From NCBI GenBank assembly GCA_030390025.1, contig CM059432.1, forward strand, positions 47,866,001 to 47,930,000: a DNA stretch of 64,000 nt, read 5' to 3'. The stretch is from Squalus acanthias (taxonomy: Eukaryota). Below, piece after piece: positions 7,006-60,860 of the stretch (position 1 is its first letter; each line of letters starts with the position of its first letter). The position numbers were made by a program, and so were the translations under genes. Below the pieces are notes generated by a model. The model did not search any database. It had not been told where the DNA came from and saw only the letters and a list, made by a program, of their open reading frames with translations.

Positions 7006-7686
7006 CTTGTTAAATTACAGATCAGCCATGATGGAGGTCTGATGAAGTCTTTCTTTCTTTCATCCATCTAGTTGGGCTGTTGCTGATTTAAAATGAGTAG
7101 TAGGAGTTGGGAGCAACAGCTGACAGCAATAAAAACAACAAATTCTTGAAATACACAGCAGGTATGTTAGACTATCTTTTTTTACAGATCCTAACATATT
7201 TGTTGGAGACACTTCTATCAATTTTGATGAAGGGTATATACCCAAATATTAACCTATACAAAGAAAGGTCAAACCTGAATTTATATAGGAATGGGAGGAG
7301 GCCATTCAGCCCATCAAACCAGTTCCATCATTCAATGAGATCATGGCTGATCTGTAACTCAACCCCATTTACCTGCCTTTGCTTCCCAGAAGCCACTATT
7401 TGAAACAGTTAAGGCAGTTTTTTTTTTTTTTACAACATCAAAACAAAGGCAAACCTTTTTCTGAAGTAACTTTGAAAACCAAAACAATGCTTAATATATA
7501 CAAGGGGAAACCTGAACTATACAATACAGCAATACAATGGCAGGAACCAACTTAAATTGTGATTTATCACATCTCAGCAGCACTGAAAGGGAGATCCAGG
7601 TGTGGCATTGAAAGGGAGAGCGAAGAGCAGGCCTGAGGGAAGGGAGCTGGAGTGGTGCTGATCTTCATCTGTGAGTGCGGACACAC

Positions 7687-8441
7687 GGCCCGTATTTTCC
7701 AATCCCTACAGGTGTGTACGAGCTGTGTACACACCCGTAGGGACCTCGCAAATGCCGGTTTCAGGCATGCGAAGCGCATGCGCTGAAAATCGGCATTTCC
7801 AATCTGTCAAGAATGCTCTTGACAGATCGGACGCCTGCCTTAGAGAAGGGCCTCCGCGGGTGGAGAGTTCCACTTTTTGCAGAACCTCCGCCCGCTGAAA
7901 TCCCTTAAAAATCTTACGCCTGGTAAAAGCAGGCATAAGGCCTACTTTTACCAGCATAAGAGTTTAAGAAAGTAAAAAAAAAAATTTTTCACTCATTTAT
8001 AATTTAAAAATACTTTTAAAAAAGGTAAGTTTATTTTTAGCCCCGTAAAAAACTTTAATTATTTTTTTCAAAAAATAATTTAAAAAAAAATATTTAATTT
8101 AATGTAATTTTAAGTCATTTTAAAAAGGTGATTTAAAAAAAAAATTATTTAATGTTTTAGTGTCTTTTTTCAGTGATCTCCATTCATACTTTTGACAGGT
8201 CTATCTGTCAAAAGTATGAAGGGAGATTCCCTTCTCCCATTGGCTCCCCCTGGCCCACATGATCCCAGGGACACTTGCGAACCGCATGCACCCGTGGGAT
8301 ACCTCGGCCTTGTGCATTTCGTTGTGGAGAGGCCCAGGATCGGAAATGGCCGGACCTCAGGAGCCCTCAGGTAAGGGCGTAGATTTTTTCCCGATAGGAG
8401 GCATCCGCACACAGGAAGCCTCCTATCGGAAATTATGGGCT
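7687..8441 (+). mobile_element. Hairpin-rich non-autonomous Harbinger-type element, family X copy 1 (755 bp)
   Basis: TIRs GGCCCGTATTTTCC / GGAAATTATGGGCT; close reverse-complement match to 49435-50174. Confidence 0.9.
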
Positions 8442-11880: not shown

Positions 11881-12199
11881 TTTTATGAATTTAGCTTTAT
11901 CTCTTCAAGGCACTCCTTATTTTCCAATTGCCCATTTTTTAACACACTCTTTATTCGTTCAAATGTCTGCTTGATTCCTTTTGCTCCTGTAGCTTATGAC
12001 AAGGCACCTTGGTGTCACACTTTAGAATCCAAGTTGTCTCAGACCTGCACATACTTTTCTTCACTTGAGGTTGTAGAATTGTGCAGTTTGAATTCAAAAT
12101 CTGAATTGATCTAAATTATTTTTGATATTGCTTTACCATTTTAAAATGCTGTGTTGCACAGATAGTGCTATCAGAAAGAAGGCTACCAATATGTACCAT

Positions 12200-12940
12200 G
12201 GGCCGGATATTCCGATCCCTACGGGTGGGTACGCGCTGTGTACCCACCCGTAGGGACATCGGAAATGCCGGTTTCAGGCATGCACAGTGCATGCGCTGGA
12301 AACCGGCATTTCCAATCTGTCAAGAAAGCACTTGACAAATCCTCTGGCTGCCCGGGAGCAGGGCCTCTGCGGGCGGATAGTTCCGCTTTTTGGAGACCCT
12401 CCGCCTGCAGAAAACCCTTACAATTCTTGCGCCTGGTAAAAGCAGGCATAAGGCCTGCTTTTACCAGGATAAGAGTTGAAAAAAAGTTTATCTGATTTAT
12501 CATTTAAAAATACTTTAAAAGGTAAGTTTATTTTTAGCCCCGTAAAAAACTTTAATTCTTTTTTTCAAAAATTAAAATTTTTGTTTAAAATAGTTAATTT
12601 ATTGTAATTTCAAGTCATTTTAAAAATGTGATTTAAAAAAAAAAATTATTTAAAGTTTTACTATGTTTTGGGGTGATCTCCATTCATATATTTGACAGGT
12701 CTTCCTGTCAAATGTATGAAGGGAGATTCCCTTCTTTGATTGGGTCCCCATGGCCCACGTGATCCCAGGGACGCTGCGAACTATCTGCACCTCTGGGATA
12801 CGTGGGCCCTGCGCACCTACAGTTCGGAGAGGCCCAGCATCGGAATTGTGCGCGTCCCGGGAGCCCTCAGGTAAGGGCGCGGATTTTTCCAGATCGCAGC
12901 CCTCCGCCCGCGGGAGGCCTGCGATCGGAATATCTGGGCC
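12200..12940 (+). mobile_element. Family X non-autonomous Harbinger-type element, copy 2 (741 bp)
   Basis: 18-bp TIR GGGCCGGATATTCCGATC / GATCGGAATATCTGGGCC; CAT TSD at 12197-12199 and 12941-12943. Confidence 0.92.
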
Positions 12941-14109
12941 CATATCTACAACTTACATTGTTAGAAAAATTAACTTGATTTTAGGAGAAATTGAATGTGT
13001 ACTGCAAAAGCAATAGAGTTAATGCAGTGGTATATTTTAGCCACTAATGGGCGTGTTTCTAATACTAGCGCCCATAGAGGTTTGCATTAAAAGAAACAGA
13101 AAACTGAGAAACCATTGAATGCAGTATTTGCTGTGATTTAGTGTTATTCTAAATTTCCCGTTTATAGAAGCAGAAGATATTAACCGACTGCTCACTAATG
13201 CCAATTAAGGACTCAATAGACACTACTAACCCTTTTCCTGCTGGCTGCAATATTTACAGCCATTATAATAATATGACTGTATATAAAAGGTAGGTGGGAC
13301 TAGAGTTTGTATCTCACTGTCTCTGTGAGCTCCTGGAAATTGGGAAATTGTTTTGTTTGCTTAGGCGGTTGAAGAGGAATTTCTCGGATTCTTTTCCTGA
13401 ATTGGCATGAGGTGTTTTTATCTGGTTTTTTTTACCTCTCTCGGGAGGTTACATGGCTATGGGAGGAAACACTGCGAGTCACAATATTTTGTTGCACCAT
13501 GACTGTTTGGGACAGACTCGTTAGACCAGAAGCTCTTTCTTCATCCGTCTTTTCGTATGTATGTCTGTTCCTTCAAAGCTGAGCTAGAGTGGGCTTTCTG
13601 CAGCATACTTAAAGGCGTTACTGCATTTTTTCAACACTTAATTGTGGCAGGAAGCAGGAGAGGAGAACAGGAATGAAGGCTGCATGGGCAGCTCATTAAT
13701 ATCTGTATGAATCACCTCTGATGACAAGTCTACTGGCCAGGACAGGCTATCTGTCACAAAGAAGGTATCTCTCAACCACAGCACTTTTCAGCAGACAACC
13801 GGCTGAACCTGTGATGGGCAATGCCCACCTGTTAGCAGCTGAGATTGGTAACCTTTTCCAGCCCCGCTCCTCTGGAGTCTGAAGAGCAGCTCACGTAATA
13901 TATTGTAGACAGACTTATTTTCATGATAAATGTCTCTTTTTACACAAATTGTAGTAGTCCTGTGAAATGAATAAATCTATCAGTACACTTTAATTTTAAT
14001 GTGTTTGGAGTGCTGGCACTCTGCCTCTCACTGCCCACCTGACAGGGGAGGTTTTTGCTGGAGCAGGGGTTTTAACCTCTCTAAATTTGATTAGTTTATC
14101 AATTACTTC

Positions 14110-15340: not shown

Positions 15341-16405
15341 GCCTGGAGGTTTGCACAGGGCTGCACTTGGCACTGTTGCTTCATTAATGGATAAATCTTA
15401 AATTAGAACACCAGTTGCTATCAACAGCTTGAGATTTAAACAAACCACTGGAAATATTGATTTTAAACTTTACACGTGGCCCATGAGGCTCCATGGTACA
15501 CACCCATTGAGCCACCACAAAACAAAAACTTGGACACTCCCGATCTACACACACTGTGGCAGCCTGGCCATATGGGAAATTAGGAGATTTCTCAAGTGCC
15601 CCCATGAATGGTTTGTAGTGTTGTATTATTGCCCCCCCTTTTTCCATGAGAATCTCAAAAGGGAACCAGTCCACCCCTGAATGCACATCTTCAGGCCCAC
15701 TAACTTTGCAGATACTTCGGGGAAAAATTATCTCCCTGAAATCCATACGGCTTTTATATTAGGTGAGAAATAGGTGGGACCAAGGATAGATCCTTGGAGG
15801 ACTCCAGAGGTACTTGGGTGGAGACGAGAAGAGAAGCCAGTGCAGGATATTCTCTGTCTATGACTCGATAGGTAAGAGTGGAATGGATAGGTAAGAACTC
15901 GGCTTAAACTGGCCAACTCTCAAGACTCCCATTTTATATGAGAGAGGTGCACACTGTGGGAAAAATCTTGGCTGAAGATGCAAGAATTGATGTAGGACCT
16001 GATTTTTAATCGATGTAAATGAAGGCCATATGGCTTCATTAATTTGCCGCAAATCACACGTCACAAAAACTGGCAGGTAGCAAATCGTGCATGATTCTTC
16101 TGGTATCCACCTGTCGTCAATGAGACCCTGGACTGCTGGCAGGGTCTAACAAAATAGGCCATTATATTTCAAAAGGAATTTATTTTTGCTCATCTTAATA
16201 GAAACCTATAAATCACCTTTCCTGGTTTGCAATTTAATTCCCAACAGTCAAAATTAAGAGGTTCAAAAAGGAAAAAAAATCTGTGCTAAGGATGAAAAAT
16301 ACTGAATAAAAAGGCAAAGCATAGTGCTTGGAAAATACAAAGATGAAATACAACTTCTCTACAATGCTGTGGTACAAGAGTTCCCATTCTGCGTGCTGTG
16401 ACATT

Positions 16406-17168
16406 GGGCCAGAAATTCGGTTTTCCGGCTTCCTGCAGGTGCAAGCATCGCGCGTGTACTTACCTACCGCGCCTGCCGTTGTGTTTTGGGCCCACGAGAA
16501 CTTCGGGTCCTGGGCCTCCTGCAGCTGCCGGCGCGCAGTGCTTGTGTGTACCAGGGGCGCAGTTAGTTTGAAGCGTCCCCTGGGATCACGTGGGCCATGG
16601 AGAGCCAATCCTAGCAGGGCATTTTCATTCATAGAGTTGACAAGAAGACCTGTCAAATCTATGAATTGAAATCGGCCCCAAAACCACACTTAAACTTCAA
16701 ATAATTTTTTTTTAAAAATCACATTTTTAAAATAACTATAAGTTAATTAAATTAACTACTTTAAACAAAAATTTAAATTTTTGAAAAATTAATTATACTT
16801 TTTAACTGTGCTAAAAATAAACTTACCATTCTTTAAAGTATCTAAAAAAGATAAACCTGTTGAAAAATGTTTTAAATTGTAATTAATTAACCACTTACCT
16901 TGTTAAAAACGGGTCTTGCGCCTCCTTTTTAAAAGCGCAGCTTCTTCAATACTTACCTTCCCGGAGAAACCTGAAAAAAAAACGAAGTTTGCTGCGTGCG
17001 CGCAGCCTCTCCTGCGCACGTGGTTCACCTCTGAACCCCTCCCTTCACGAGACCGGAAGTTCCGGTTTCCCGCACATGCGCAGTGCATGCAGGAAACCGG
17101 CACTTCAAGTGGCCTTACGGGTGAGTACACAGCGCGTACTCACCCGACAAGCGCCGAATTTCTGGGCC
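16406..17168 (-). mobile_element. Family X element, copy 3 (763 bp)
   Basis: TIR GGGCCAGAAATTCGG / CCGAATTTCTGGGCC; flanks ATT/AAT; same hairpin series in reverse order. Confidence 0.9.
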
Positions 17169-18754
17169 AATATGCTTAGCTGATTCACTGAACAGTGATA
17201 GTGTACCACCCGATACAGCACACGTCCACCGTGAACAGATAAGATGACTAATGTTACCACTGAGCATCTTCCAGGGGCTAGGGGCTGTCATAGGAATTAT
17301 GCCAAATCCTTTTATGACTAACGAATGGATTAAAATGGATGTGGATTTGTGTATTAGCACGCATAATGTGCCGGATTAAATTTAATGCATATTAGCTACA
17401 ACTTTGGAACAAATATAGTAAAACAGGTCAAAGATCAATAATCATCAAATTCATTGCCTGGTAATCTCTATTAAGGTCAAAACATAAGCAATAGCTATCT
17501 ATTCCTTCTGAACCCTGCACACAAATGTCATGACAGTAATTCTATCACTTACACAACACAGACAGGTGCCAGAGTTCCTTCCTTGATCAAACCAATGCTG
17601 AGTCCTACCACCTGTTGTTCCTAGTCTGGGCCTACCCGAGTCTTTCAGAACGCATCCTGTAATGTACACAATCTTACACATGCCTTTGGTATTTGGCTGC
17701 TCTCAGTTGAATTCATTTTTAAATCATAGGAACCTAGGACTGGGTGTAGGCCATTCAGCCCCTGGAAAATATGCTAGAATTGGATTTTTTTGGTGAAAAG
17801 GATGCTTGGCCAGGTCTCTGGTTGAGAGAGAAAATGATTTTGGCTGCTTTTTATAATGTTCTTACCAGAAATACATTTGTTTCTCAGATAGTAACGACAC
17901 TGAAACAGATTGATTGTTGGTGATTGTTGGAGACTCCCTGGCTCTTCAGAATGAAAAAGAAAGCAATAACTCTTAAAAGGGCATTCAAGGAAAATTTGCA
18001 ATGGTTATTCTCAGAAGGTTGTTATCAAGTTTTCCCACACAATGTGACAAAGTAATTTGCCTCCCAAAGAGATAATTTGCATCACAAAACATAACCGTTG
18101 CTTGTGCGTGATATTTTGATAAATATAGTGTGGCTCTTCTGAGGTTTTTTTCCCCCGCTCCTCAGAATGGCAACAATTCTCCTTTAAAAAGAATGTTTCA
18201 TTAGGAGCTCATGGTTGGGATTATGGAAATAGTGCTTGTAAAACATTGTGACATTCATTTTGCTTCTAATTCCACAGATCTATAAATAAGCCTTTCAAGA
18301 TCCAGAAATGACCACCTTAGTAAACTTAGCTGTCCAATCTGTACTTAATTTCTTGCAGTTTCCGATTCAACAGACATTGATTAACAGTCTTAGCCATTAT
18401 TTAACTAACTAAATAATTATTAAGCCAATTGAGAGGCATGAAATAGGTATTACTGCAGACAGTCCTAACTAATTAGCATTTATATTCACTGCCCTTCAAA
18501 TAATTTAAAATTGTAAAGATTAATACCCTGGTTTTTAAAAGCAGAAAATATCCATGGTGAACATGAGCAAGGAGAAGGAATGGTTGACTGGGCGTAGGAG
18601 CAATTGAAGAGATGGACTAGCACAAGGGTAATTACAGAAGGCACACATCCTGAAAGTGATGAAAGGGATACTTTCAGGAGCAGATGTCTGGAGTCCAGCA
18701 AGTAAATTACTGAGACATAACCTATTGCTTTTAAATCTATCTTGTTTATCTTAC

Positions 18755-20164: not shown

Positions 20165-20686
20165 TAAATTCTTATCTAACTAATCATAGCCAGAGAATCA
20201 CCTACAATGGCTTCTTTTCCCGCTCCCGCACCGTTACCTCATGTATGCTGATGGCACCGAGCTATACCTCACCACTACCTATCTCGAACCCTCCACTGTC
20301 TCTAAATTGTCAGACTGCTTGTCCCACATCCAGTATTGGATGAGCAGAAATTTCATCCAACTAAATATTGGGAAGACCGAAGCCATTGTTTTCGGTCCCC
20401 GCCACAAACTCCGTTCCCTAGCCACCGACTCCATCCCGCTCCTGGCAACTGTCTGAGGCTGAACCAGACTGTTTGCAACTTAGTGTCATATTTGACCCCG
20501 AGACGAAATTCTGACCACATATCTGTACCATCACTAAGACCACCTATTTCCATCTCAGTAGCATCCTCGACTCCGCCCCTCCCTCAGCTCATCTGCTGCT
20601 GAAACCCTCATCCATGCCTTTGCTATCTCTAGACCTCTAGACTTGACTATTCCAATGCACTCCTGGCCGGCCTCCCACATTCTACC
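20165..20686 (+). mobile_element. L2 LINE fragment, left part (split by CR1)
   Basis: MYADGTELY and WMSRNFIQLNIGKTE motifs; continues at ~29853, colinear with the unsplit L2 at 42520-43260. Confidence 0.9.
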
Positions 20687-21313
20687 GCAGAGGCAGCGGA
20701 CCTGAGCGGGAGCGAGAGCGGAGGCTGAACAAATAAAGAGCGCGGCAGAGCAAGGCCCGAGAGCAGAGGTAGCGGACCTGAGCGGGACCTGTGAAAGAAA
20801 AAAATATCAAAGTGGGACATCACAGGAAAGCAGCGAAAGAACAACAAAAAACAAGGAGTGACGTCACAGGAAAGCAGGGAAGTGATTGGTTGGTCAGTAT
20901 TTCTCTCTTTTTCTTGGGCATTGGTTTAAATTAAGAGCCGGGATTAAAAACTAAGGGGGAAAAATTAGGTCGCGCCCCGTTTGGGGCGCAAATATCGTCT
21001 GGACGCAAATATTAGCGCCTGGCGCTAATTATCGCCACTGACTGGAAACTTCACTTTTACCGCCCCGGGAGGTGAGTGGAGCGCTAAATCAGGCGCTGCA
21101 CACCTGTCTTAAGGCGCAAAGGCCGAGCCGTGAGGCGCTAACTCAGCGCGCGAGCGCAGCGCAGCTGCTGCCAGTTAGCGAGGGAACACAGACACACTGG
21201 CGCCGGCCAGTTCTTAAAGCGGGGAGGGCCAACTTGCTCCCCAGCCACACCCTGCTCATTGCAGCCTTGAATCTCGGCCTGGAGAGACCTGTGAATCCAT
21301 TTTGCTGCCAAGG

Positions 21314-23133
21314 ATGGAGAGGGTGAGAGAACGAGCTCATCGCTTCACCGAGCGGGCCTTGGATGCTCTGGTTGGCGCGGTGGAGCGCAGAAGATGTATA
21401 CTCTTCCCTGAGAGTGGCAGGAGGCCTTTGCCACGCGAGTACAGAAGAGTGTGGAGGGAGGTGGCTCAGAGCGTCTCCTCCAGGAGCATGGTGCCCAGGA
21501 CCCATGTTCAATGCCGCAAAAAGTTCAACGACCTCACTCGGGTCGTCAGGGTGAGTGGCTTTTTCTCAATACCTCTCCATCCCTCCATCTCAACCTCACT
21601 CTATGGCCAGAGGGTCTTAAAACCACAATGCACAACACTCATCCAACACCTATGGCCCTTTCATGAAACACACACACACATTCCACACTTTGCATACAGT
21701 AAGGGCTATTCACCTCTGGGAGGCACATCAGGCAAGACCATGGCTGCATACAGTAAGGGCTATTCACCTATGGGAGGCACATCAGGCAAGACCATGGCTG
21801 TATATTTACTCAGATGCTGTCCTTTTTCTTGCAGGCCAAGCTGGCGCATAATCGGAGACAGCAGCAACGGACAGGTGGAGGGCGGCCTCAGCTGCAACCC
21901 CTCAGCGATCTTGAGGAGCGCGTCCACAGGATTGTGGCAAGCCGGGTGATCGGTCCCGTCACCACTGGAGACGCCGACCCCGTTCTGGACAGCAATGGTA
22001 AGGTCATCACCTTTTTGTCCTCTGTCCTTCCACTTGTCCCTCACAACACCAGCCTTTGACACTTTCAATCCAACTTGCTAACTCGCTGCACTTATTCCTC
22101 CCTTACTGCCACCCTGTCCTCACGCTAAAGCCACTCTTGTACCTCCCTGCTTTCAGATGGTGATTCACCAGCTGAGGAGACGGGCCCTGAAGCTGCCACT
22201 GGGAGTGAAGCTGCAGCCGAGGAGGAAGAGGAAGCCGGAGCATCAGTGCCACCCTCTCCCGAGGAAGCCCATGCCCACACTGGGAACACGCCTTCCCTGG
22301 AGGGGAGCAGGGGAGAAGGGTCTGATGAGGGTGAAGCTCCAGGACCCAGCAGGCTGCAGCAACGCCATGGGGGTAGGGAAGAACGGGGGCCTTCTCCCCA
22401 GAGGGAGAGTATGCCAGAGACTCATACTGCAATGGACGCAGAGGAGGAGCGGCTGATCGCAGAAATGAACACCCAGGCGGTGGGCATGCACACTGAGCTC
22501 ATGGGTGCAGTGGGAAGGGTGCCCGAATGCATTGAGTCACTGGCAAGGAGTGTGGAGCACTTCGCTGTAGCACAGGCGGATGCCACACTAACGCTTAGTG
22601 CTGCAATTCAGTCACTGGCTGCCGTGATCCCATCTCTGACTGCTCTCATGCAGACTCAGATTGAGGCCACGCGAGCACAGACTGCTGCCAACCTCGATGG
22701 TTTGTTCACATGTCCCCGGGGCTCTCACCGCGCCGCAGCAGGCCAGCAATCTGTTCTCCAGCAGATTGCTCCGGATGCTGAAGTGCTGCCCCGTGGGAGT
22801 GCCAGTGTGTTGGGCGAGCAGGGAGTTGCTGTCCTCTCTCACGATGACAGCATTCCTGCTGCCAACACTGTCACTTCTCCACTGCACTTGCCACCGCCTG
22901 TAGGACAGACTGCTGCCGCCCATGCAGAGTTGGTGCAGTCTGCAGCCGGGCCCTCCAGGCTCAGAACTGGGCGAGGCCGTCCTTCAGGGGCATCTGCACT
23001 GTCAGGGTCTGACGATCAGCAGCCTTCCACCAGCCTTGCTGCAGCCACTGAGGTCCCATTACGGAGGAGCAGTAGGGTTAGAAGGGGGGAAGTGCGCAAG
23101 GGAAGGAGATCACCCTCGAAGGGCAAAAAGTAG
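21314..23133 (+). CDS. Harbinger Myb/SANT-like DNA-binding protein, 3 exons (21314-21550, 21835-21997, 22157-23133), 458 aa
   Basis: RFTERALDAL...WREVAQSV...QCRKKFNDL trihelix motif and RTGGG motif. Canonical GT-AG introns (phase 0 and 1) join into one 1377-nt ORF ending in a basic NLS-like tail. Confidence 0.9.
21691..21800 (+). repeat. 54-bp tandem duplication in Myb intron 1
   Basis: TGCATACAGTAAGGGCTATTCACC...GACCATGGC occurs twice with one mismatch. Confidence 0.95.
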
Positions 23134-23445
23134 GAGGTGTGACAAAATGCTGGTCATTTTTTTATTAAAGGCCGAGGTTCGTGGTCCAACTTTTGTTTAG
23201 TGTTTTGGACATTATCTCCAGGTTGTGAGAACCAGTTATGTTATTGACTGTTTTTTTGTGTTTATTTCTATGAGTTTGTCATGAGGAAATGACACACACA
23301 GAGTTTGTAAAATAAATAAGTTTTTGTATTCAAAATATACATGTTTGGCGTTTGGAATTATTGGTGCCTTGGCCGGCTTAGGGGTTGCGTGCTGGGTTCA
23401 TTGATGTTGTTAGCAATGGCAGAAGCCATTTCCACAGCAGGGGCC

Positions 23446-24606
23446 CTAGAAGCGGCTTGCTATTAGCTGTTGACGGACGGCCCTTGCAGTTTCACCATTG
23501 TGGGCCGCCCTCCCGCCTTGGTGCTGCTGATGATCATCCTCCTCGTCCTCTTCCTCCTCTTCCTCCTCCTCCTCTGGTGGTGCTCCAAGGCCTGGTGGCA
23601 TTGGCTGGGTCCTGACGATTGCCATGTTATGCAACATGCAGCACACAACTACGAAGTTGGATACTCGTTCAGGCGAGTACTGCAGGGCTCCTCCAGAATG
23701 GTCGAGACAGCGGAACCGTTGCTTCAGCACGCCGATTGTGCGCTCAATGATGTTCCTGGTAGCTTGATGGCTCTCATTGTACCGCAGCTCAGCAGGGGTG
23801 TTGGGCGTACGGAGCGGTGTCATCAGCCAGGTGCTCAATGGATACCCCTTGTCCCCGAGAAGCCAACCAACTGGCTGATGCGGTGCCTCGAAAAGTTCTG
23901 CCACAGTAGTCTGGCGCAGGATAAAAGCATCGTGGCAGCTGCCAGGATAGTGGGCATTGACAGCGAGTATCAGCTGTCTGTGGTCACAGACCAACTGAAC
24001 ATTCAAGGAATGGAACCCCTTTCTGTTCCGGAATTCCTCGACATTCTCATGTGGAGCACGCAAAGCCACATGCGTGCAGTCAATGGCGCCCTGCACCATG
24101 GGGAAGCCCGCTATCCTCGCAAAGCCCAGAGCGCAGTCACGCTGCTTGTCTGGGGTCATGGGGAAAGAGATGAACTCTCGTCTCCTTTTAAAGAGGGCAT
24201 TTGTGACCTGCTGGATGCAGCAATGCACCGCGAACTGGGAGATATTGGCGAGGTCCCCAGCAGCAGCTTGAAATGAGCCAGTAGCATAGAAGTTGAGAGC
24301 CACTGTGACCTTCACTGCCACCGACAGAGACGTCCTGGACCTCAGTTGAGGCTGCAGATCTGGCTGCAGCAGGTGGCAGAGCTCAGTGACCACCTCCTTG
24401 CTGAATCGCAGCCTTCGCAAACACAGCTCCTCAGACATATGAATGTAGGAGAGCTGTTCACGATATACCCTGGGAGGGTAAGCTCTCCTGTACATACGCC
24501 TGTTGGCCCTCCTCCGTCTGGCCATCATTGCCACTCTCTCTCTGCGTCTCTGTGTCCTCCGATTCAGCTGGAGCAGGACGACGCCCCCAATCAGTGCAGC
24601 CCCCAT
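23446..24606 (-). CDS. Harbinger (HARBI1-like) DDE transposase, 386 aa, intronless
   Basis: GAIDCTHV, NRKGFHSLNVQ, LGDKGY and IERTIGVLKQRF motifs with the catalytic D/D/E intact; acidic tail. First ATG at 24606 (the ORF track begins at an upstream TTG). Confidence 0.96.
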   Translation of the reverse strand: MGAALIGGVVLLQLNRRTQRRRERVAMMARRRRANRRMYRRAYPPRVYREQLSYIHMSEELCLRRLRFSKEVVTELCHLLQPDLQPQLRSRTSLSVAVKVTVALNFYATGSFQAAAGDLANISQFAVHCCIQQVTNALFKRRREFISFPMTPDKQRDCALGFARIAGFPMVQGAIDCTHVALRAPHENVEEFRNRKGFHSLNVQLVCDHRQLILAVNAHYPGSCHDAFILRQTTVAELFEAPHQPVGWLLGDKGYPLSTWLMTPLRTPNTPAELRYNESHQATRNIIERTIGVLKQRFRCLDHSGGALQYSPERVSNFVVVCCMLHNMAIVRTQPMPPGLGAPPEEEEEEEEEDEEDDHQQHQGGRAAHNGETARAVRQQLIASRF

Positions 24607-25163
24607 AGTCTCTTTGCAAGCAAAGTAATGAAGGACAGCAACCAAAGTAGCAGCGAAGTTAGGATCAGTAGGCAAAACTATCTCACAAAGCTTAGACTCA
24701 ATGCAGAAGTCTCTCTTTCTCTCTCTCCTAATCTCTCTCTCTCTCTCAGAACGAGTGGTGCAAAAATGTCAACCACAGAAAAAGACAGGAAGAGGCCCCC
24801 TTTAAATAGCGCCCCCCCCCAGCCCCACAGCGATTGATAGCGTTCCAGTCTTCCGGTCGTTGGATGTGCCAGGCGGTAAGGCAGGGGGCGCCACTCAATT
24901 TCCGCTCCGGGGCGCCACAAGGGCGTTGCACCATGGAATGACGTCACAATCTGCGCGCGCAGGTGGTCGCAGCGGTAAAGTTTAGCGCCGCCGCACAATG
25001 TCTAGTTAAGTTCCGGAGCGGCGCAAACATCGCTGCGCCCGGGCGTTAGCGGCTTTGCGCCCCATTAGCGCCCTCTTAAGGCGCTAACGGGAGGCGCAAC
25101 CAACTGAATTTTTACCCCTAAGTGTTCAAAACTTAAACACTTAATTAATTAAATACATTAGCA

Positions 25164-26119
25164 ATGGCAGGGCAGGCGATGTGTTACTGCTGCAACATGT
25201 GGGAGCTGGTGGACACCATTGAGGTCCACGGCGACCACGTTTGCAGTAAGTGTTGGCTGCTTGAGGAACTTCGGCTCCGTGTTGATGAGCTGGAGTCTGA
25301 GCTTCAAACACTGTGACACATCAGGGAGGGGGAGAGTTACCGGGATGCTGTGTTCCAGGAGGCAGTCACACCCCTTAGATTAATTAATTCAAATTTGGTC
25401 CGTCATCAGGGACAGGTGGGTGTGACTATGAGCGAGGCAGGTATGGGGACCCAGGAGGTAGTGGTGGAGGAGCCTCAGCCTTGCTCTTGCCCAACAGTTA
25501 CGAGGTTCTTACTCTCTGTGTGGGTGAGAGCAGGGACTGCAGTGAGGATGAGCAAACTGACCACAGCACCGTGGTACAGGGAGCCATTCAAGTGGGGGGA
25601 GCAAAATGAAATGTGGTAGTGGTAGGGGACAGTATAGTTAGGGGGATAGACACTGTTCTCTGCAGCCAAGAGCATGAGTCCCGAAGGCTGTGTTGCCTGC
25701 CCGGTGCCAGGGTAGAGGACATCTTCTCTGGGCTGGAGAGGAACATAGAGTGGGAGGGGAAAGATCTTGTTGTCGTGGTCCATGTAGGTACCAACGACAT
25801 AGGTAGGACAAAGAAAGAGGTTCTGCTGAAGGAGTATGAGCACCTAGGGGCTAAATTAAAAAGCAGAACCACATAGGTAATAATCTCTGGATTACTACCT
25901 GAGCCACGTGCAAATTGGCATAGGGTAAATAAGATCAGAGAGATGAACGAGTGGCTCAAAGATTGGTGTGGGAGAAATGGGTTTCGATTCCTGGGGCACT
26001 GGCACCAGTACTGAGATAAGAGGGAGCTGTTCCATTGGGACGGGCTACATTTGAACCAGGCTGGGGCCAGTGTCCTGGTGAATCGAATAACTAGGGCTGT
26101 AGATAGGGCTTTAAACTAA
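25164..26119 (+). pseudogene. CR1 ORF1 (Cys-rich N-terminus, coiled coil, SGNH esterase), disrupted
   Basis: CYCCNMW..CSKC, VGDSIVRG, HVGTND and DGLHLN motifs; internal stops and frameshifts. Confidence 0.88.
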
Positions 26120-26122
26120 ATA

Positions 26123-29100
26123 GTGGGGGGGGAGGGATACGCTGAGCGGAAATTAAAAAAGTCAAAGAAAAATGAGAAGGCAAAAGGGCAGTGTAGCGAT
26201 AGGGGTAATGATAACCAGAGTGTGACAGGAAGGGACAGAACGTATACACATAAGAGTGCATCAGAAAGAAGGGTCAGAGTAGGGAAAAATGGTAAAAAGA
26301 CAAAATTAAAAGCTCTATATCTGAATGCATGCAGCATTCATAACAAGATAGATGAGTTGACAGCACAAATAGAAGAGTTGACAGCACAAATAGAAATAAA
26401 TGGGTATGATCTGATAGCCATTACAGAGACGTGGCTGCAAGGTGACCAAGGCTGGGAACTGAATATTCAGGGGTATTTGCCATTTCGTAAGGATAGGCAG
26501 AAAGGAAAAGGAGGTGGTGTAGCTCTGTTAATAAGGGATGAGATCAGTGCAGTAATGAGAAATTATATTGGCTTAGAAGATCAAGACGTAGAATCAGTTT
26601 GGGTGGAGATAAGAAATAATAAAGGTAAGAAGTCACTGATGGGAGTGGTCTACAGGCCCCCAAACAGTAGCCACACTGTAGGACAGAGTATAAATCAAGA
26701 AATAATAGAGGCTTGTAAGAAAGGTTTGGCTATAATCATGGGAGATTTTAATCTTCATATTGATTGGACAAAGCAAATTGGCAAAGGTAGACTTGAGGAA
26801 GAGTTCTTAGAGTGTATATGGGATGGTTTCTTGGAACAATACATTGTGGAGCCAACCAGGGAGAAGACTATTTTAGATCTGGTAATGTGTAACGAGACTG
26901 GATTAATTAATGATCTCGAAGTGAAGGATCCTCTTGGGAAGAGTGATCATAGCATGGTAGAATTTCAAATTCAGTTTGAGGGTGAGAAAGCTAGGCTCAA
27001 ACTAGTGTCCTGAACTTATACAAAGGTAATTACAAAGGTATGAAGGCAGACTTGGTTAAAGTGGACTGGGAAAATATATTACAGGGTAAGACTGTAGAAA
27101 AGCAGTGGCAAACATTTAAGGAGATATTTCATAACTCTCAGCAAAGATATATTCCAGTGAGAAAGAAAGACTCTAAGAGAAGGATGAACCAGCCGTGGCT
27201 AACTAAGGAAGTAAAGGATGGTATCAAATTGAAAACAAAAGCATACAATGTTGCGAAGAATAGTGGAAGGCCAGAGGATTGGGAAATTTTTAAAAACCAG
27301 CAAAGGACGACTAAAAAAATGATAAAGAGAGAGAAGATAGCTTATGAGAGTAAGCTAGCAAGAAATATAAAAACAGACAGTAAGAGCTTCTACAGGTATA
27401 TAAAAAGGAAGAGAGTAGCTAAAGTAAATGTTGGTCCCCTAGAGGATGAGTCTGGGGAATTAATAATGGGACACAGGGAAATGGCAGAGATTTTGAACAA
27501 ATATTTTGTATCGGTCTTCACGGTAGAAGACACTAAAAGCATCCCAATAATGGATAATCAAGGGGCTATTGGGGTGGGGGGGGGGGGAAACTTAAAACAC
27601 TCACTATCACTAGCGAGAAAGTACTAGGCAAACTAATGGGACTAAAGGTGGACAAGTCCCCTGGACCCGATAGCCTGCATCCTAGAGTCTTAAAAGAGGT
27701 GGCTGCAGAGATAGTGATGCATTGGTTGTAATCTACCAAAATTCCCTGGAGAGGTCTCAGCAGACTGGAAAACCACAAATGTAATGCCCCTATTTAAGAA
27801 AGGAGGGAGACAGAAAGCAGGCAACTATGCAGACAAATTTGCTGGAGTTCTTTGAGGATGTAATGAGCAGGATGGATAAAGGGGAACCAGTAGATGTCGT
27901 GTATTTGGATTTCCAGAAGGCATTCGATAAGGTGCCACATAAAAGGTTACTACACAAGATAAGAGCTCACGGGGTTGGGGGTAATATATTAGCATGGACA
28001 GAGGATTGGCTAACTAACAGAAAACAGAGAGTCGGGATAAATGGGTCATTTTCAGATTGGCAAACTGTAACTAGTAGGGTGCTGCAGGAATCAGTGCTGG
28101 GCCTCAACTATTTACAATCTATATTAATGACTTGGATGAAGGGACCAAATGTAATGTAGTCAAATTTGCTGATGATACAAAGATAGGTGGAAAAGCAAAT
28201 TGTGCGGAGGACGCAAATAATCTCCAAAGGGATATAGATAGGCTAAGTGAGTGGGCAAAAATCTGGCAGATGGAGTTTAATGTGGGAAAATGCAAGGTTA
28301 TCCACTTTGGTAGAAAAAATAAAAAAACAAATTATTATTTAAATGGGGAGAGATTACAAAATGCTGCGGTACAGAGGGATCTGGGGGTCCTTGTACATGA
28401 ATCACAAAAAGTTAGCATGCAGGTACAGCAAGTAATTAGGAAGGCAAATGGAGTGTTGGCCTTTATTGCAAAGGGAATCGAGTATAAAAGTAGGGAAGTC
28501 CTGTTACAACTGTACAGGGCGTTGGTGAGACCACACCTGGAGTACTGCGTACAGTTTTGGTCTCCTTATTTAAGGAAGGATATACTTGCATTGGAGGCAG
28601 TTCAGAGAAGGTTCACGAGGTTGATTCCGGAGATGAAGGGGTTGTCTTATGAAGAAAGGTTGAGCAAGTTGGGCTTATACTCATTGGAGTTTAGAAGCCT
28701 GAAAGGGGATCTTATTGAAACATATAGGGCCGAAAATTGATCCCGGGACGCGAGAGTACGCACTGCGTACTCTCGCGTATTCCCACTCCAATTGCCGGTT
28801 TTCTGCATGCCCTGCGCATGCGCTGAAAACCGGCAATTGCTCTTCTGAAAAGGGGGCGGGTCCTGGGTGCATCGCGTGCGCGCTACAGGCTGCGCGCACG
28901 CTGTGCACTTCATGCTTTGGACGCGCAGGTAAGTAGGGAAGATTTTGGAAATGTAAAAAGGAGGAGTAAGACCCGCTTTTAAGAAGGTAAGTAGTGAATT
29001 AAGTATTTTTTTGAATTTTTTTTTACAGGTATATCTTTTTTAGAGACTTTAAAGACAGGTAAGTTTATTTTTATAACTTTTTAAAAGATTTTAAATTTTT

Positions 29101-29710
29101 TCAAAAGTTTAATTTTTTATTTAAAATGGTTAATTTAATTAACTATACTTATTTTATTAATGTGATGGTTTTTTTTTTAAATTTAATTGAGGTTTAGCTG
29201 TTATTTTGGGGGGGTGTAAGATTCATAGATTTCACAGCAGGTCTGTGAAACTTATGAATGGAAGATGGTGTGCTGCCATTGGCTCTAACTGAGTCACGTG
29301 ATCCCACAGCTCGCACGAATTCACTACGCCGCTGGGATACGCAAGCCCAGCACAGCTGATGTCTGGAACATCAAGTTCGTGCGAGCTGGATCTGAAAAAG
29401 CACAAGCGAGGTGAGACATCGCGGGGAAGGCTTACCCCCGCGGGAACAGAGCGAGATCAATTTCTGGGCCATAAGATTCTGAAGGGGCTTGACAGGGTAG
29501 ATGCAGAGAGGATGTTTCCCCTCGTGGGGGAATCTAGAACTAGGGGGCATCATTTCAGAATAAGGGGGCACCCATTTAAATCGGAAATGAGGAGAAATTT
29601 CTTCTCTCAGAGGGTTGTGAATCTTTGGAATTCTCTTCCCCAGAGAGCTGTGGAAGGCTGGGTCATTGAATATATTTAAGGTGGAGATAGACAGATTTTT
29701 GAATGGTAAG
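26123..29710 (+). pseudogene. CR1 ORF2 (APE endonuclease + RT), disrupted
   Basis: AITETW, GDFN, SDH, YLDFQKAFD and KFADD motifs. Frameshifts, an in-frame 21-bp duplication (26354-26395), an apparent deletion at ~27828, and an insertion at 28727. Confidence 0.92.
28727..29470 (+). mobile_element. Family X element, copy 4 (744 bp)
   Basis: 16-bp TIR GGGCCGAAAATTGATC / GATCAATTTCTGGGCC; ATA TSD. Removing it restores the CR1 reading IETYKILKG. Confidence 0.95.
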
Positions 29711-29852
29711 GGAGTCAAGGGTTATGGGAAGCGGGCAGGGAAGTGGAGTTGAGGCCAAGATCAGATCAGCCATGAGCTTATTGAATGGTGGAGCAGGCTC
29801 GAAGGGCCAAATGTCCTACTCCTGCTCCTACGTCTTATGTTCTTATGTTATG

Positions 29853-30380
29853 TACCCTCCGTAAACTTGAGGTCATCCAAAACTCAGCTGTCCATGTCCT
29901 AACTCGCACTAAGTCCCGTTCACCCATCACCTCTGTGCTCGATGGCTTACATTGTCTCCCGGTTAAGCAACGCCTCGATTTTAAAATTCTCACCCTTGTT
30001 TTCAAATCCCTTTATGGCCTAGCCCCTCCCTATCTCTGTAATCTCCTCCAGCCCCACAACCCTCCCAGATATCTGCGCTCCTCTAATTCTGGCCTGTTGA
30101 GCATCCCTGATTTTAATCGCTCCACCATTAGTGGCCGTGCCTTCAGCTGCCAAGGCTCTAAGCTCTGGAATTCCCTCCCTAAACCTCTCCGCCTCTCTAC
30201 CTCTCTTTCCTCCTTTAAGACGATCTTTAAAACCTACCTCTTTGACCAAGCTTTTGGTCATCTGCCCTAATATCTCCTTATGTGGCTCGGTGTCAAATTT
30301 TGTTTTATAAAGCTCCTGTGAAGCACCTTGGGAAGTTTTACTACATTAAAGGCGCTATATAAATAAAAGGTGTTGTTGTT
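29853..30380 (+). mobile_element. L2 LINE 3' part
   Basis: KLEVIQNSA..LHCLPVKQR..KTYLF motif and AAAGGCGCTATATAAATA tail. Confidence 0.9.
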
Positions 30381-38332: not shown

Positions 38333-39500
38333 GACCCAAAGTTCTGATGCTGCAGATACGCCTGGGGTGGGGGTGGGGGAGGGGAAGGAGGGGTAATATT
38401 GAATGGCTGCCACTGAGTGGGTGGGGGTGTGGAAAATAGTGAGGGGAGAGAAACCTGCTGCTGCTTAAAGTGGAACTGGCAGCACTGGAGCAAGCAAGAA
38501 ATCGGGAAGATTGTGATGGTAGCCAGAACTAAGATGAGAGCAGGCAACTTCACAGACCAAACTGTATGTCCTCCCAGGAGGCAGAAGGTGTTTTAGAGTC
38601 AGGGGCAGGAAGCTCAAGAAGAATGCTGTCAACACTCTGTATAGAGGAAGGTCGCAGTAGCTGTCAGTACCACTTCCTTGAACCCCAGGACTCCTTTACA
38701 GTGTCACAAGAAGTTCAATGATTTGCATAGGTAAGCTAGCTGCCTCTCACTTACCCTTCCTTCCAGTCTCATATATCTGTGGCATTTTGTCTTTAATTCA
38801 TCTCTCTTGCTCCAGGACCTGTGATCCCTTTTCCTATCGTGGTTTACCTGCTATCTATAAATGTCGAGTCTGTATTTCTTTACTTCACCTGAGGAAGGGG
38901 CGATCGATAGCTCCGAAAGCTTGTGATTTCAAATAAAACTGTTGGACTATAACCTGGTGTTGTGCGACCTCTCAATTTTGTCCACCCCAGTCCAACACCG
39001 GCATCTCCGCATCATGATCTATAAATGCGCCATCCCTAACTCGCCACACCTGCCCTTTCTTGATTTTTGGTTTGGGAGTGCAAACACAGTAGCAAGAAAT
39101 ATGATTGGGCACTTTCAAATTCTACAGAGGAACTGCTGTGGTAGCTGCATATCATTATAACATCTCTTCATTTTCTTTTCCTCGAGGTAACCCAAAGCAA
39201 TAATCTGCAGCGGAGGAGGAAGAAGGAAGAGGCAGATTTTTCACCTCTGGCCAACCAGCCGTATCCTTACTCATGGCACCATTCATCCTTTCTCTTTCAC
39301 TCATCAGCCCAGAGAAATGCACCTGGGATATTTTGATAGCTGAGTGAGATACAACCCATTCTGGTGCTGGAGGGGTCAGAGGTTAAAGTAGGATCTGACA
39401 GTGACAGGAGGTGGTGGAAGGGCCGCAGAAATCAGCCCCAGACTCGAGAGCTTGCAGGGCAATGCAACCTGCAGAAGAGTCCTCCTAGTACTCAGGAGCC
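38333..39500 (+). mobile_element. Very old Harbinger remnant (Myb exon 1 relic)
   Basis: CAGTGTCACAAGAAGTTCAATGATTTG = QCHKKFNDL followed closely by a GTAAG donor at ~38732. Boundaries uncertain. Confidence 0.6.
38885..38926 (+). ncRNA. Minimal type I hammerhead ribozyme motif in a Penelope-like fragment (~38860-39015)
   Basis: TCAC-CTGAGGA-(A GGGGC..GCTCC)-GAAA-GCTT-GTGA. Confidence 0.75.
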
Positions 39501-45431: not shown

Positions 45432-47850
45432 GACCCCGATATTAATATGAAGGCGGCTTCCGAGTGGGGGATGGGGGCTGGAATTGCGTGGGGAAACCCG
45501 TAAGTCAACTGAGTGGGTCAGAATTTGCGATCACAACTGAATTGTACCAATTAATTTTGACTTTGCTTCTCTAAGCTGCGCAGCGGGCATGATGCGCATC
45601 CGCATGGCGTGATCTCAGCTGTATTTAAAGGGACAGTGCACAAATGGAAATTGAAGGCGTTCCGGATGGATGATGGATAAAGGGCAATGGCAGCATCAGA
45701 TTTAATGACGCCTTGCTGGAATTACTGCTGGGTGCAGTCAGGAGGAGGAGGGACATACTATTCCCCAGCAATGGGAGGAAGAAACCTGCAGCTCTCACCA
45801 AGAAGGCATGGTTGGAGGTAGCTGAGGAGGTGAGCAGCAGGAGCGTTGTGCCCATGACATGGATTTGCTGTTTCAACTATATCCTGTGCTTGAGGCCCTC
45901 TACCTTTCACTCTGTCCTGCCAAACGTTCGCCATCACATCACTCCTCACACCCACTCAACTTTCAGCAGCACACCGCCTTCACTTTCTATGCATTTCATC
46001 ACCTCTACATTTATCCATTCACTGTTGACTCTCACCCTAATCCTTATGCAATGTGATGCATGTGTCTCATAGTCACCCTCACCGAATGCACTGCATCCAT
46101 TAGGTGAATATCTGACCTTCAGTCACTCACAGGTATGTTTTATCGGCCCTTGTAGGAAAAGAGAGCGCAAAATACAAGGGAGAGGGACAGGACTGGAGGT
46201 GGGCTGCCACAAATAGTCCAGCTCACTGATGCAGAGGAGGACATCCTGGAGATAAGTGGCACATCTATGTCCCTCACAGTTGGAGATGGAGAGACAGGGA
46301 GCTCGCAAATAGCTGGTGACAGAATTACAAATATCTCTGACACACGTATGCTGACTTTATTTCATCAATGACTGAACTATGAGAAGACTGAGTATGGTCA
46401 TTGTCAAGGTTATTACTTTATCACAACTAAATCATATCCCTTTCTTTTGTCTTCTAGGGCCTTCACATGTACGGCAAATGTTGCAGGATATCCACGAGGA
46501 CGATTCCTCAGAGGACCTCATTCCTTCTGATGGTGCACCATCACAGAACGTACAGCCATGCACTAGTGCAGATACTCGCACTTCGGTGGGTCCATTTAAA
46601 CAGTTAGTTGGGTTTTCACATAGTGATTCACACCTCACAAGTGAACATGAGCAGATAATGTTGGCAGGGACAGCTGTGGAGAGTCTGCGTCGGGGATGCA
46701 ATGCTTTCCAAGCTCTGCTCAGCTGGACACAGATGCTGAACCCCAGGGCCATCGTAGAGAAGGAGAATGCTAGAGGTGCATCAGCAACTTAGCCAGGTAC
46801 TAGCAGACATGCCATGCACACTCTCCACAATAGCGGAGAGGAAGGAGGAGTCCAACCCGGTCACTAGTGGATTGGTGGCACAGGGAATTGCAAGAATGTC
46901 AGCCATTGAGAGGCCATCTCCATGGAGCTTCAAGCAAGGCTCTCATATGAGTCCATGCAGGCCATGACCACGGCCATGCAGACTTTAGATGCCTACGTGT
47001 CTGCCACTTTAAACAGGATGACAGATACCTTATCCGTGGCCTCATAATGTGTTACTGATCTCCACCAAGCTGGTCTGCAGCAGAGTGGTAGGAGTGATGT
47101 TCTGCTGGCCCAGGAGAGAGATGATGGTGAAAGATGGAAGTGGGAACTCCACTCAACGCGCTCCCACTTCTCACCCGTTGCTCGGATTGCCACGTGTGTG
47201 TAGTCGATGGCACCCTGTACCTGTGGAAATCCAGCCAGAGAGGCGAATCCGAGTGCCCGCTCTCTCTGACTATTGTCATCACTGGGGAAATTTACATAAT
47301 TGCCGGCCTTGGCAAACAATCCATCAGTGACCTGCCTTATGCATTTTGTACAGCCGACTGGGAGAACCATGGCTATGTCGCCGGTAGCGCCCTGGAAGGA
47401 CCTGGAGGTGAAAAAGGTGAGGGTGATGGTGACTTTCACAGCCATTGGTTCTGTTTGGCCACCATATCCAGCAGGGAGCAGGTCTTCCTTTAGGAGCTGT
47501 AGATATCTGCCACCACCTGACGTGACAAACTCAGCCTGTGGAAGCACTGCTCTTCTGAGAGGTCAAGGAAGCTGAGGCTCTGTCTGTAAACCCTGTGATG
47601 TGGGTAGTGCCTCCTGCAACCTCGGCCCCTCTCCAGTGCACTTCTCACCTGCGCAAGTCCCTCCTGCGTACCTCCTCCCAGTGCACCTCCACCTGATGCA
47701 ACTCCCCCCGGTGCAACCCTGTCTGGTGCACCTCTCTTCTGTGCATGTGCTGATCCCACCACAGCACATCGTCGCTGTCATGGATGGTGATGGTCTTCCT
47801 CTTCTGAGGAAAACAGAAATTTGCACTGGTTTGTGAAAGCTGAACATTGT
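45432..47850. pseudogene. Decayed Harbinger: Myb pseudogene (+, ~45680-47183) abutting a truncated transposase (-, ~47184-47800)
   Basis: LELLLGAVRRRRDILFP..AWLEVAEEV on plus; AGFPQVQGAIDYTHVAI on minus. Confidence 0.9.
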
Positions 47851-49350: not shown

Positions 49351-49434
49351 ATTAAAACAATTACAGCATTCCTTAGTTTGCAAAGGAAGAAGCCAGTTGT
49401 GCACAGCTCCACATTAACAGCACACTAATACATT

Positions 49435-50174
49435 GGCCCGTAATTTCCGATAGGAGGCTTCCTGCGTGCGGATGCCTCCTAGCGGGAAAAAATCTATGCC
49501 CTTACTGAGGGCTCCCGAGGTCCGGCCATTTCTGCTCCTGGGCCTCTCCTGGTGTGCGCGCGCAGAGACCCAGGTATCCCCGGGGCGCAGGCGGTTCGCA
49601 AGCGTCCCTGGGATCACGTGGGCCAGGGGGAGCCAATGGGAGAAGGGAATCCCCCTTCATACTTTTGACAGGTAGACCTGTCAAAAGTATGAATGGGGAT
49701 CACTGAAAAAAGACACTAAAACATTAAATACATTTTTAAAAAACCATCACGATTTTAAAATGAGTTAAAATTACATTAAATATTTTAAACAAAACTGTAA
49801 TTTTTTGAACAAAGTAATTAAAGTTTTTTACGGGGCTAAAAATAAACTTACCTTTTTTAAAAGTATTTTAAAATTATAAATGTGTGAAAAAAAATATTTT
49901 TTAACTTTTTTAAACTCTTATGCTGGTAAAAGCAGGCCTTATGCCTGCTTTTACTAGGCGTAAGATTTTTAAGGGATTTCAGCGGGCGGAGGTCCTGCAG
50001 AAAGCGGAACTCTCCACCCGCAGAGGCCCTTCTCCAGGGCAGGCGGATGATCTGTCAAGAGGATTCTTGACAGATCGGAAATGCCGGTTTTCAGCGCATG
50101 CGCTTCCGCATGCCTGAAACCGGCACTTGCGAGGTCCCTACGTACACACCCGTAGGGAGCGGAAAATACGGGCC
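49435..50174 (-). mobile_element. Family X element, copy 5 (740 bp)
   Basis: TIR GGCCCGTAATTTCCG / CGGAAAATACGGGCC. Confidence 0.92.
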
Positions 50175-50219
50175 AATGTATATTACATGGTATATTGGGC
50201 CTGCCCATGTGAAACATTT

Positions 50220-59039: not shown

Positions 59040-60860
59040 CAAGCATACGAACATACGAACAATGACGGAGAGGTAAAGACCATCTGGTCCATCAAGCCTG
59101 TCCTGCACAATTGCATTACCTTGCGTATCACAACATATAGCTACCCCACCCAAAACCATGTAATCTCCTGGTAGAGGCAAAAAAAACAGATAAAAACCCA
59201 GGCTAATTTAGGGAAAAGAAAATCTGGGAAATTCCTCTCCGACCCATCTAAGTGATCAAAACTAGTCCAGGAGATCACTCTGGCCTTGAATTCCCTGCAG
59301 TTCCTACCTTCTGTAAGAGGTGATCCCCAACCCAGCCAGAAACAGGTCCAGCTCTCGCTTGAAGGAATTCAGCGAATCAGCATCCACCGCACAAGGTGGC
59401 AGCCTATTCCAGAGATCCACTATTCTCTGGGAAAAGAACCACCTCCTGACATCTAACCTAGATCTGGCCTTATGCAACTTAAAATTGTAACCCCTGGCCC
59501 TTCCTAACCTATTTACTTGGAACAAACTGTCAGCTGGAACACAATCTATTCCCTTCATTATCTTGTAAACCTCAATCAGATCACCTCTAAGTCTACGCTT
59601 CTCTAAAGTGTAGAGTCCCAACTCTTTTAGCCTATCTTGATAACTAAGATGCTTTAGTCTGGGAATCAGTCTAGTGGCCCTCCTCTGCACCCTCTCCAAA
59701 GCCTCAATATCACCCGCCAATATGAGGAGACCAAAACTGGACACAGTATTCCAAGTGCGGCCTGACTAAGGTCTTGTACAAGGACAAAACAGAGTACCTC
59801 GTCTTGTACTCAATTGTCCTATGGATACACCCCAACACCCTATTTGCTCCAGCTATCGTTCCACAGTAGTGCTCATGTAACTTTAAGGATGTATGCACTA
59901 GAATGCCCAAATCTCTTTCTATCTCCACCTTCTTTAATGCCATTCCCTGAAGGGTGTATGAATGTTGAGCATTTGCCCTGCCCACATGCATAACACTGCA
60001 CTTATCTAAGTTATACATCGGCCCAGAAATTAAACATCGATGTTTCCCGCGGGGGTAAGGATTCCCCGCGATATCGCACTCCACGCCTACCTTTTTGTTT
60101 GGGGCCCACACGAACTTTAGTTTCAGAGCCTCTCCCTGTTGCAACCGTGCAGTGCTTGCGTGACCCAGAGCGCAATTAGTTCGTGCGAGCTCTGGGATCA
60201 TGTGATTCAGTTAGAGCCAATGGCAGCACACCATCTTTCATTCATAGTTTTGACAGCAAGGGCTGTCAAAGCTATGAATACTACAAACCCCCAAAAGAAC
60301 AGCTAAACCTCAATTAAATTTAAAAAAAAAGCCATCACATTAATAAAATAAGTATAGTTAAATAAATTAACCACTTTAAACAAAAAATTAAATTTTTGAA
60401 AAAATTTAAAATCTTTTTAAAAGTTATAAAAATAAACTTACCTTTCTTTAAAGTCTCTAAAAAAGATAAACCTGTTGAAAAAAATTAAAAATAACACTTT
60501 ATTAACTACTTACCTTGTTAAAAGGGGGTCCTACGCCTGCTTTCTTTATGTATAAAATCTTCACCACTTACCTGCGCGTTCAAACCTGAAAAAAAAACTA
60601 AGTGCACTGCGTGCGCACAACCTGTAGTGCGCACGCGGTTCACTTAGGAACCGCCCCCTTTGCAATACATGAAGTGCTGGTTTCCCGCGCATGCGCAGTG
60701 CATGCAGGAAACCGACAATTCGGGACCTAATACGCGAGAGTACACAGTGCGTACTCTCGCGTATTAGGTTTAATTTTCGGGATCTGCCTGAAGCAGACGA
60801 GCATCAGCGACAGTCCTAATCTCGGTATCGTCTGCAAATTTGCAGATTGTGCCCCCAACA
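59040..60860 (-). mobile_element. CR1 3' fragment split by family X copy 6
   Basis: KFADDT at ~60840, RPHLEYCVQFW, and FFSQRIVDLWN. Confidence 0.9.
60020..60781 (-). mobile_element. Family X element, copy 6 (762 bp)
   Basis: TIR GGCCCAGAAATTAAAC / GTTTAATTTTCGGG (2 nt apparently lost); ATC TSD; closest to copies 3 and 4. Confidence 0.9.

Follow-up and report, generated by a model that had tools for sequence, protein, structure and literature searches.

The window analysed here, i.e. the whole stretch of 64,000 nucleotides of DNA, contains a full-length Harbinger (PHIS) DNA transposon of 4164 bp (20955-25118) with a TAA triplet on each side. The element encodes a transposase and a Myb/SANT protein, and it is inserted in a LINE, which we take to be of the CR1 type from its ORF motifs and which is itself inserted in an older LINE. 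The features of the locus are collected in Table 1.

Table 1. Features of the Harbinger element and its insertion site (positions are those of the window)
Feature	Position	Strand	Description
Host CR1-type LINE	20687..29847 (approximate ends)	+	Disrupted by stops and frameshifts; Harbinger lies within its 5' UTR
Left target-site duplication, TAA	20952..20954		Target C-TAA-G; empty paralogous site
Left terminal inverted repeat (TIR)	20955..20966	+	12 bp, 1 mismatch against right TIR
Left subterminal region	20967..21313		5 copies of the 7-bp motif GGCGC(T/A)A; candidate Myb-binding sites and putative Myb promoter
Myb/SANT exon 1, DNA-binding domain	21314..21550	+	PF13873, by homology
Intron 1	21551..21834	+	GT..AG, phase 0, 284 nt; 54-bp tandem duplication at 21691-21798
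Myb exon 2	21835..21997	+	
Intron 2	21998..22156	+	GT..AG, phase 1, 159 nt; in-frame stops if retained; predicted from frame and consensus
Myb exon 3	22157..23133	+	Low-complexity C-terminal part, basic tail; no Pfam match
Convergent 3' region	23134..23445		AATAAA at 23311 (+), 23161 (-) and 23261 (-)
DDE transposase	23446..24606	-	386 aa, intronless; D176/D252/E288 and conserved D226
Transposase upstream and right subterminal region	24607..25106		7 copies of the 7-bp motif
Right terminal inverted repeat	25107..25118	-	12 bp
Right target-site duplication, TAA	25119..25121		Empty paralogous site

The original prediction had placed the element at these same coordinates and had described a perfect target-site duplication. 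Both points were borne out: TAA is present at both ends next to the 12-bp TIRs, and a paralogous CR1 copy that lacks the element has a single TAA and the same length (joint 20954>25124, in three contigs of sequencing run X1). It is this empty site that proves the ends, because a TIR+TAA/TTA signature so short arises four times with equal strength in the window, the other three occurrences being AT-rich. The TIRs, with their one mismatch, begin with G, as required of the PHIS/Harbinger superfamily. A duplication of 5 bp, CTAAG (20951-20955), fits the target equally well as the 3-bp TAA. In a post hoc test, C and G flanks were found around 76 of the 2398 TWA sites in the window. A left end in another X1 contig is preceded by C-TTA, but a right end there is followed by AGA-G. 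Comparison of the element ends with six MITE-like repeats gave no useful similarity (all E>=0.27). The GGCGC(T/A)A motif is present in 12 copies across the two ends and in none in the 3293-bp interior. These 12 motifs are candidate Myb-binding sites by analogy with the zebrafish Myb protein, which is described as binding transposon ends (PMC2836001, PMC9392472).

The transposase ORF reads from 24606 to 23446 on the reverse strand without an internal stop and matches the Pfam domain DDE_Tnp_4 (E=8.8e-40). In agreement with the original prediction of an uninterrupted 386-aa ORF with an intact DDE triad, all three acidic residues are present. In a predicted model (pLDDT 84), D176 is in the strand 171-182, D252 follows the strand 248-250 and E288 is in the helix 271-297, while predicted helices at 96-140 precede the catalytic core; a D in a strand, a D after a strand and an E in a helix is the layout described for PHIS transposases (PMC4482050). 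No solved structure was found at E<=0.001 by sequence or by fold. The fold search returned weak matches only, and these were to DDE transposases and integrases. The best 47 of the 120 transposase homologues listed are all from sharks and rays and are at most 71% identical, which makes an elasmobranch the most likely host; the closest of those listed has 71% identity over 79% of the length, and the second, from Pristiophorus japonicus, has 61% over the whole length. This copy keeps D/D/E, as do only 51 of the 109 homologues that cover all three sites (120 aligned). The sole residue to leave a column conserved at >=75% is A236, which takes the place of a proline conserved in 79% of the homologues and is shared as alanine with 3 of 114.

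The three exons of the Myb/SANT gene join in frame to give a predicted protein of 458 aa. Thus, the spliced protein of this length and the intact splice sites that had been proposed stood up, with both introns having GT..AG ends. Exon 1 contains a Myb_DNA-bind_5 domain (PF13873, Pfam E=6.3e-10), the second ORF being of the Myb/SANT kind by which the PHIS superfamily is recognized. Junction 1 (21550/21835) is backed by homology in that the predicted protein aligns without a gap across the splice point with homologue P0008 (46% over 112 aa), and intron 1 has the same position in both of the decayed Harbingers in the window. Junction 2 (21997/22157) is predicted from the reading frame and the splice consensus. 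In protein searches, exon 1 gave one homologue among 187 candidates, and the database search with exon 3 gave none.

We file the element as Harbinger/PHIS and, on one site and a by-eye comparison, as a probable member of the NuwaII subgroup. Its one target site fits the C-TNA-G described for NuwaII (Han et al. 2015, PMC4482050), with the same 3-bp/5-bp ambiguity, and it also shares GG termini, DDE_Tnp_4 and Myb/SANT ORFs and a similar length. By eye, its motif blocks and the spacer of 23 residues that precedes GDxGY are similar to those of NuwaII-4_XTro and NuwaI-2_DRer, in a figure without rows for narrow-sense PIF/Harbinger elements. By contrast, the TIR of 12 bp compares with 13-46 bp reported for NuwaII, and cartilaginous fish are absent from the 12 hosts listed for that subgroup (PMC4482050). 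With narrow-sense PIF/Harbinger elements it shares a TAA target, which is a form of TWA, two ORFs and the predicted helices before the core, and its length is close to their mean of ~4124 (PMC4482050); however, the C and G flanks, at the single site here, point to NuwaII. According to the same source (PMC4482050), this subgroup includes the turtle Harbinger_CPB and Xenopus Harbinger-2 families, and many RepBase "Harbinger" families belong to it.

Two more Harbingers are found in the window, at ~45.6-47.7 kb and ~50.4-52.9 kb; both are decayed, with a transposase identity of 44-50%. The data support that the intact element is younger than these neighbours and younger than its host CR1. Abundant CpGs, in contrast to the decayed CR1, had been taken as a further sign of youth. 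The contrast itself is real: the CpG o/e of the element is 0.56, compared with 0.32 for the body of the CR1 and 0.42 for the window as a whole. As a clock, we rejected it, because the excess sits in the ends of the element (o/e 0.86 and 0.92), where the subterminal 7-bp motifs account for much of it, and the 5' UTR of the CR1 itself also reaches 0.82. CpG content is, therefore, weak evidence of youth.

In public sequencing runs, at least half of the element's words were recovered in 18 of the 23 runs listed, with 0.86 in the best run and 0.57-0.69 in organisms B, D and E. The detailed comparison covered four of the 23 runs, and ~55% of X1 was read; the small word shares in X19 and X20 were disregarded. 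Summed contig depth in X1, which is not a copy number, was 2.1e5-1.35e6 over the bins of the element and highest at its ends, with single contigs listed at 24-107. On the basis of this depth, the family is interspersed and highly repeated, and a rough reading gives hundreds to thousands of copies. In one X1 contig, position 21089 is linked to 24780, which would fit deletion derivatives.

Run X9, for which the label RNA was a guess, behaves like low-coverage DNA and was not counted as evidence of RNA: it reads through intron 2 in unspliced form at 0 differences and carries both introns and the flanking repeats. Horizontal transfer of the element to organism C was rejected because run X8 also has the flanking LINE repeats, with a ratio of repeats to element close to that in X1, at ~1/10,000 of the depth. 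Run X23, which has the same organism label as X8, contains 0.00 of the element's words, and the element in X8 is presumably explained by a trace of shark DNA. In run X21, 126 of 10,085,944 reads were hits, mostly on a CT repeat, and there is no evidence of the element in this run.

As an approximation of the dominant family sequence, we took those X9 and X8 contigs that are both long and of high depth. The copy differs from it at 18 of 1273 bases (X9) and 19 of 1689 bases (X8), i.e. by ~1.1-1.4%; three X8 pieces of the element at lower depth, with 5-14 differences apiece, and two from X9, with 13 apiece, were set aside as other subfamilies. In the comparison with X1, 40 of the 200 difference rows were examined, and 34 of these 40 lie within the element. 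A change was counted as near-private if >=85% of the X1 depth carries another letter, a threshold set by us. By this measure, 15 of the 34 element rows, and thus at least 15 substitutions, are near-private. Four of the 15 are CpG decay, above the expected fraction of 0.09 (p=0.04). The nine coding changes comprise six non-synonymous and three synonymous ones, which over only nine sites does not depart from the neutral expectation of 0.72 (p=0.49). In other words, the near-private changes have the appearance of neutral decay, and the divergence data tend to speak against the insertion being very recent. At the epaulette-shark mutation rate of 7e-10 per generation (PMC10587355), 0.36-0.48% divergence would correspond to roughly 5-7 million generations, or 2.6-34 million over the interval given in that paper, with the caveat that the rate is that of a different shark and that CpG-rich DNA mutates faster.

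No disabling change was seen in the ORFs, splice sites or catalytic residues of this copy. In a neutral simulation (600 trials), both ORFs, the splice sites and the acidic residues were intact in 33-61% of cases at 0.5% change, in 7-34% at 1.1% and in at most 0.5% at 4.8%. Because neutral copies so often stay intact at 0.5% change, intactness does not demonstrate activity; what it does is limit the age to a divergence of a few percent. Clear divergence from the family consensus together with disabling substitutions had been named in the original prediction as evidence against it; a divergence of ~1.1-1.4% was found, while a disabling substitution was not seen. With a DDE transposase and a Myb/SANT gene in this state, the proposal of a two-component element of the autonomous type is supported. 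By contrast, its description as young and possibly naturally active finds no support in the differences from the X9 and X8 contigs, the best word share or the neutral-looking near-private changes.

Based on these data, we suggest, with a probability of roughly two in three, that the element is a drifting, possibly competent copy left by a past burst. A copy of a high-copy Harbinger family of a shark or ray (PHIS, probably of the NuwaII type) would have inserted at C-TAA-G in the 5' UTR of the CR1 in the course of a burst that was comparatively recent but probably lies millions of generations back. Since then, it would have drifted neutrally, so far without acquiring stops and without damage to splice sites and catalytic residues.

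We regard it as unlikely that the element is currently mobile, as a member of a very young subfamily whose host species is not represented among the runs compared. The differences from the organism A family would then be subfamily traits, in line with the seven difference rows that cluster at 24627-24694 and look more like a haplotype than like scattered mutation. Moreover, none of the listed X1 pieces matches the flank of the locus without differences, so organism A may not be the host species, and the coding, splice and catalytic features are all intact, as they would be in just the 7-34% of copies given above for 1.1% neutral divergence. However, the ratio of non-synonymous to synonymous changes looks neutral, CpG decay is over-represented and includes both non-synonymous changes in the transposase, no run has more than 0.86 of the element's words, and no splice joint is present among the 15 of 137 X1 joints listed.

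Less likely still is a dead copy that is intact in looks only and is disabled by missense changes, the TIR mismatch or silencing. Four of the six near-private non-synonymous changes fall in the poorly conserved Myb tail, and the remaining two, Q132 and Q380, are tolerated in homologues (the same residues in 8 of 120 and 22 of 120, respectively). Such a copy would nonetheless be in keeping with the number of these changes, with A236 at the conserved proline, although this residue alone departs from a column conserved at >=75%, with the mismatch in the TIRs and with methylation, which the CpG decay implies. Finally, that the two genes form a domesticated pair like HARBI1/NAIF1 is very hard to credit, although homologues are named "putative nuclease HARBI1" in databases and Harbinger domestication is reported as recurrent in jawed vertebrates (PMC9392472), because such genes are single copy without TIR or TSD, while this element has TIRs, a TSD, an empty site, a position internal to CR1, a very high family depth and neutral-looking changes.

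For the drifting copy that we favor, the proposed mechanism follows the two-protein cut-and-paste cycle reported as established for Harbinger3_DR and Ping/Pong (PMC2836001, PMC9392472). By analogy, the spliced Myb/SANT protein would bind the ends, with the 12 subterminal motifs as candidate sites, and would also bind the transposase and carry it into the nucleus. The DDE transposase would cut both ends and reinsert the element elsewhere, with a 3-bp duplication of the target, and the same two proteins would mobilise deletion derivatives in trans. The age of the insertion, the binding sites and competence are what we infer here; judged from its sequence, the copy may still encode working proteins, and present activity is possible.

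The two-protein design is shared with zebrafish Harbinger3_DR, which was rebuilt from a consensus and assayed (Sinzelle et al. 2008, via PMC2836001), whereas the element here is a genomic copy; the two were compared by description only. The original prediction implied that such a copy is rare, which is overstated: an intact vertebrate copy is unsurprising because intact and expressed Harbingers are known in other vertebrates. For instance, sea krait Harbinger-Snek, coelacanth and newt Harbingers are described as recent expansions with intact two-ORF copies (PMC8437027, PMC5381603, PMC5741667). In sea kraits, there are reportedly 269 fully intact copies (Laticauda colubrina) and one, with RNA over both ORFs in the one-copy species (PMC8437027), coelacanth Harbingers show ongoing accumulation (PMC5381603, citing Smith 2012), and a burst in the newt is both recent and expressed (PMC5741667). 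These comparisons are by description, and they set RNA or insertion evidence in other hosts against a shark element known from DNA. Teleost Harbingers are also reported to be transcribed (PMC9179366), a spontaneous Harbinger insertion has been reported in a nematode (PMC13668399), and Han et al. give two intact ORFs for 88 families in PIF/Harbinger and for 22 in NuwaII (PMC4482050). The shark and ray proteins annotated as "putative nuclease HARBI1" (P0002-P0048) are homologous to the transposase, with 71% identity for the best match listed.

Among cartilaginous fish, a 2022 survey found no Harbingers in the elephant shark and urged that others be examined (PMC9179366), and Tourist/Harbinger elements are given as the commonest DNA transposons in a reef-shark genome (PMC12498223). 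Our search of the open literature, mostly of titles and the openings of abstracts and with subscription papers largely outside it, found neither a paper dedicated to the Harbinger families of sharks nor an assay in cells of a native Harbinger from a vertebrate; the family may already appear in the repeat tables of published shark genomes. As it stands, the element is one intact copy of known design, and its significance is modest in that it documents a large, comparatively recent expansion of Harbingers in an elasmobranch. We think it rather doubtful that the family is still mobile in the shark germline and that its native proteins transpose in vertebrate cells with a C-TNA-G preference. If so, however, the element would provide a ready-made, native and unreconstructed two-component Harbinger/NuwaII system of a vertebrate. 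If the native proteins work, it would conveniently lend itself to tests of how Myb guides the recognition of the ends and of how targets are chosen, with binding and catalysis under separate control.

Organism A, which was the source of the public sequencing run X1, may not be the species of the window. In X1, a contig of depth 47 runs across 10 bases from the right end of one family copy into the left end of another (joint 25118>20954). This joint is a head-to-tail pair of family copies at another place in organism A, and local hopping was perhaps its source. Joint 21089>24780 in the same run fits a derivative with an internal deletion that lacks both genes, and depth in X1 is higher in the end bins of the element than in the interior bins. 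Intron 1 of the focal Myb gene contains a 54-bp tandem duplication (21691-21798). Contigs of both X8 and X9, two other public runs, break off 30 bases inside this duplication, a pattern that points to a family-wide feature.

The region 20190-30378 has three levels of nesting, i.e. an older LINE contains a near full-length CR1, which in turn contains a Harbinger and a MITE; a short TACC repeat is present at both ends of the CR1. The window also contains two decayed Harbingers that are 66% identical in DNA to each other across 1.3 kb, and their transposases have 44-50% amino acid identity to the focal transposase. Six non-coding repeats of ~750 bp are mutually related and MITE-like, with GG-rich inverted termini in all five of those checked. 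The repeat at 28.7 kb is inserted within the CR1 that hosts the focal Harbinger, with an apparent ATA duplication.

Other Harbinger remains and MITE-like repeats in the window
Feature	Position
Decayed two-gene Harbinger, family other than focal	~45600-47700
Decayed two-gene Harbinger, family other than focal	~50400-52900
Remnant of Myb exon 1	38639-38731
MITE-like repeat, ~750 bp	7684-8440
MITE-like repeat, ~750 bp	12191-12943
MITE-like repeat, ~750 bp	16400-17180
MITE-like repeat, ~750 bp	28720-29480
MITE-like repeat, ~750 bp	49432-50183
MITE-like repeat, ~750 bp	60020-60780

Among the database homologues of the transposase, the annotated Pristiophorus protein P0008 has a Myb domain and a Harbinger transposase within a single chain, which is either a genuine fusion or a gene-model artefact. 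Other "HARBI1-like" proteins form pairs of close similarity (P0005/P0006, P0012/P0013, P0024/P0027 and P0043/P0049). In three of these four pairs, the partners come from sharks or rays of different named genera, and the catalytic E is absent from several of the proteins. These pairs may represent unreported domestications in elasmobranchs.
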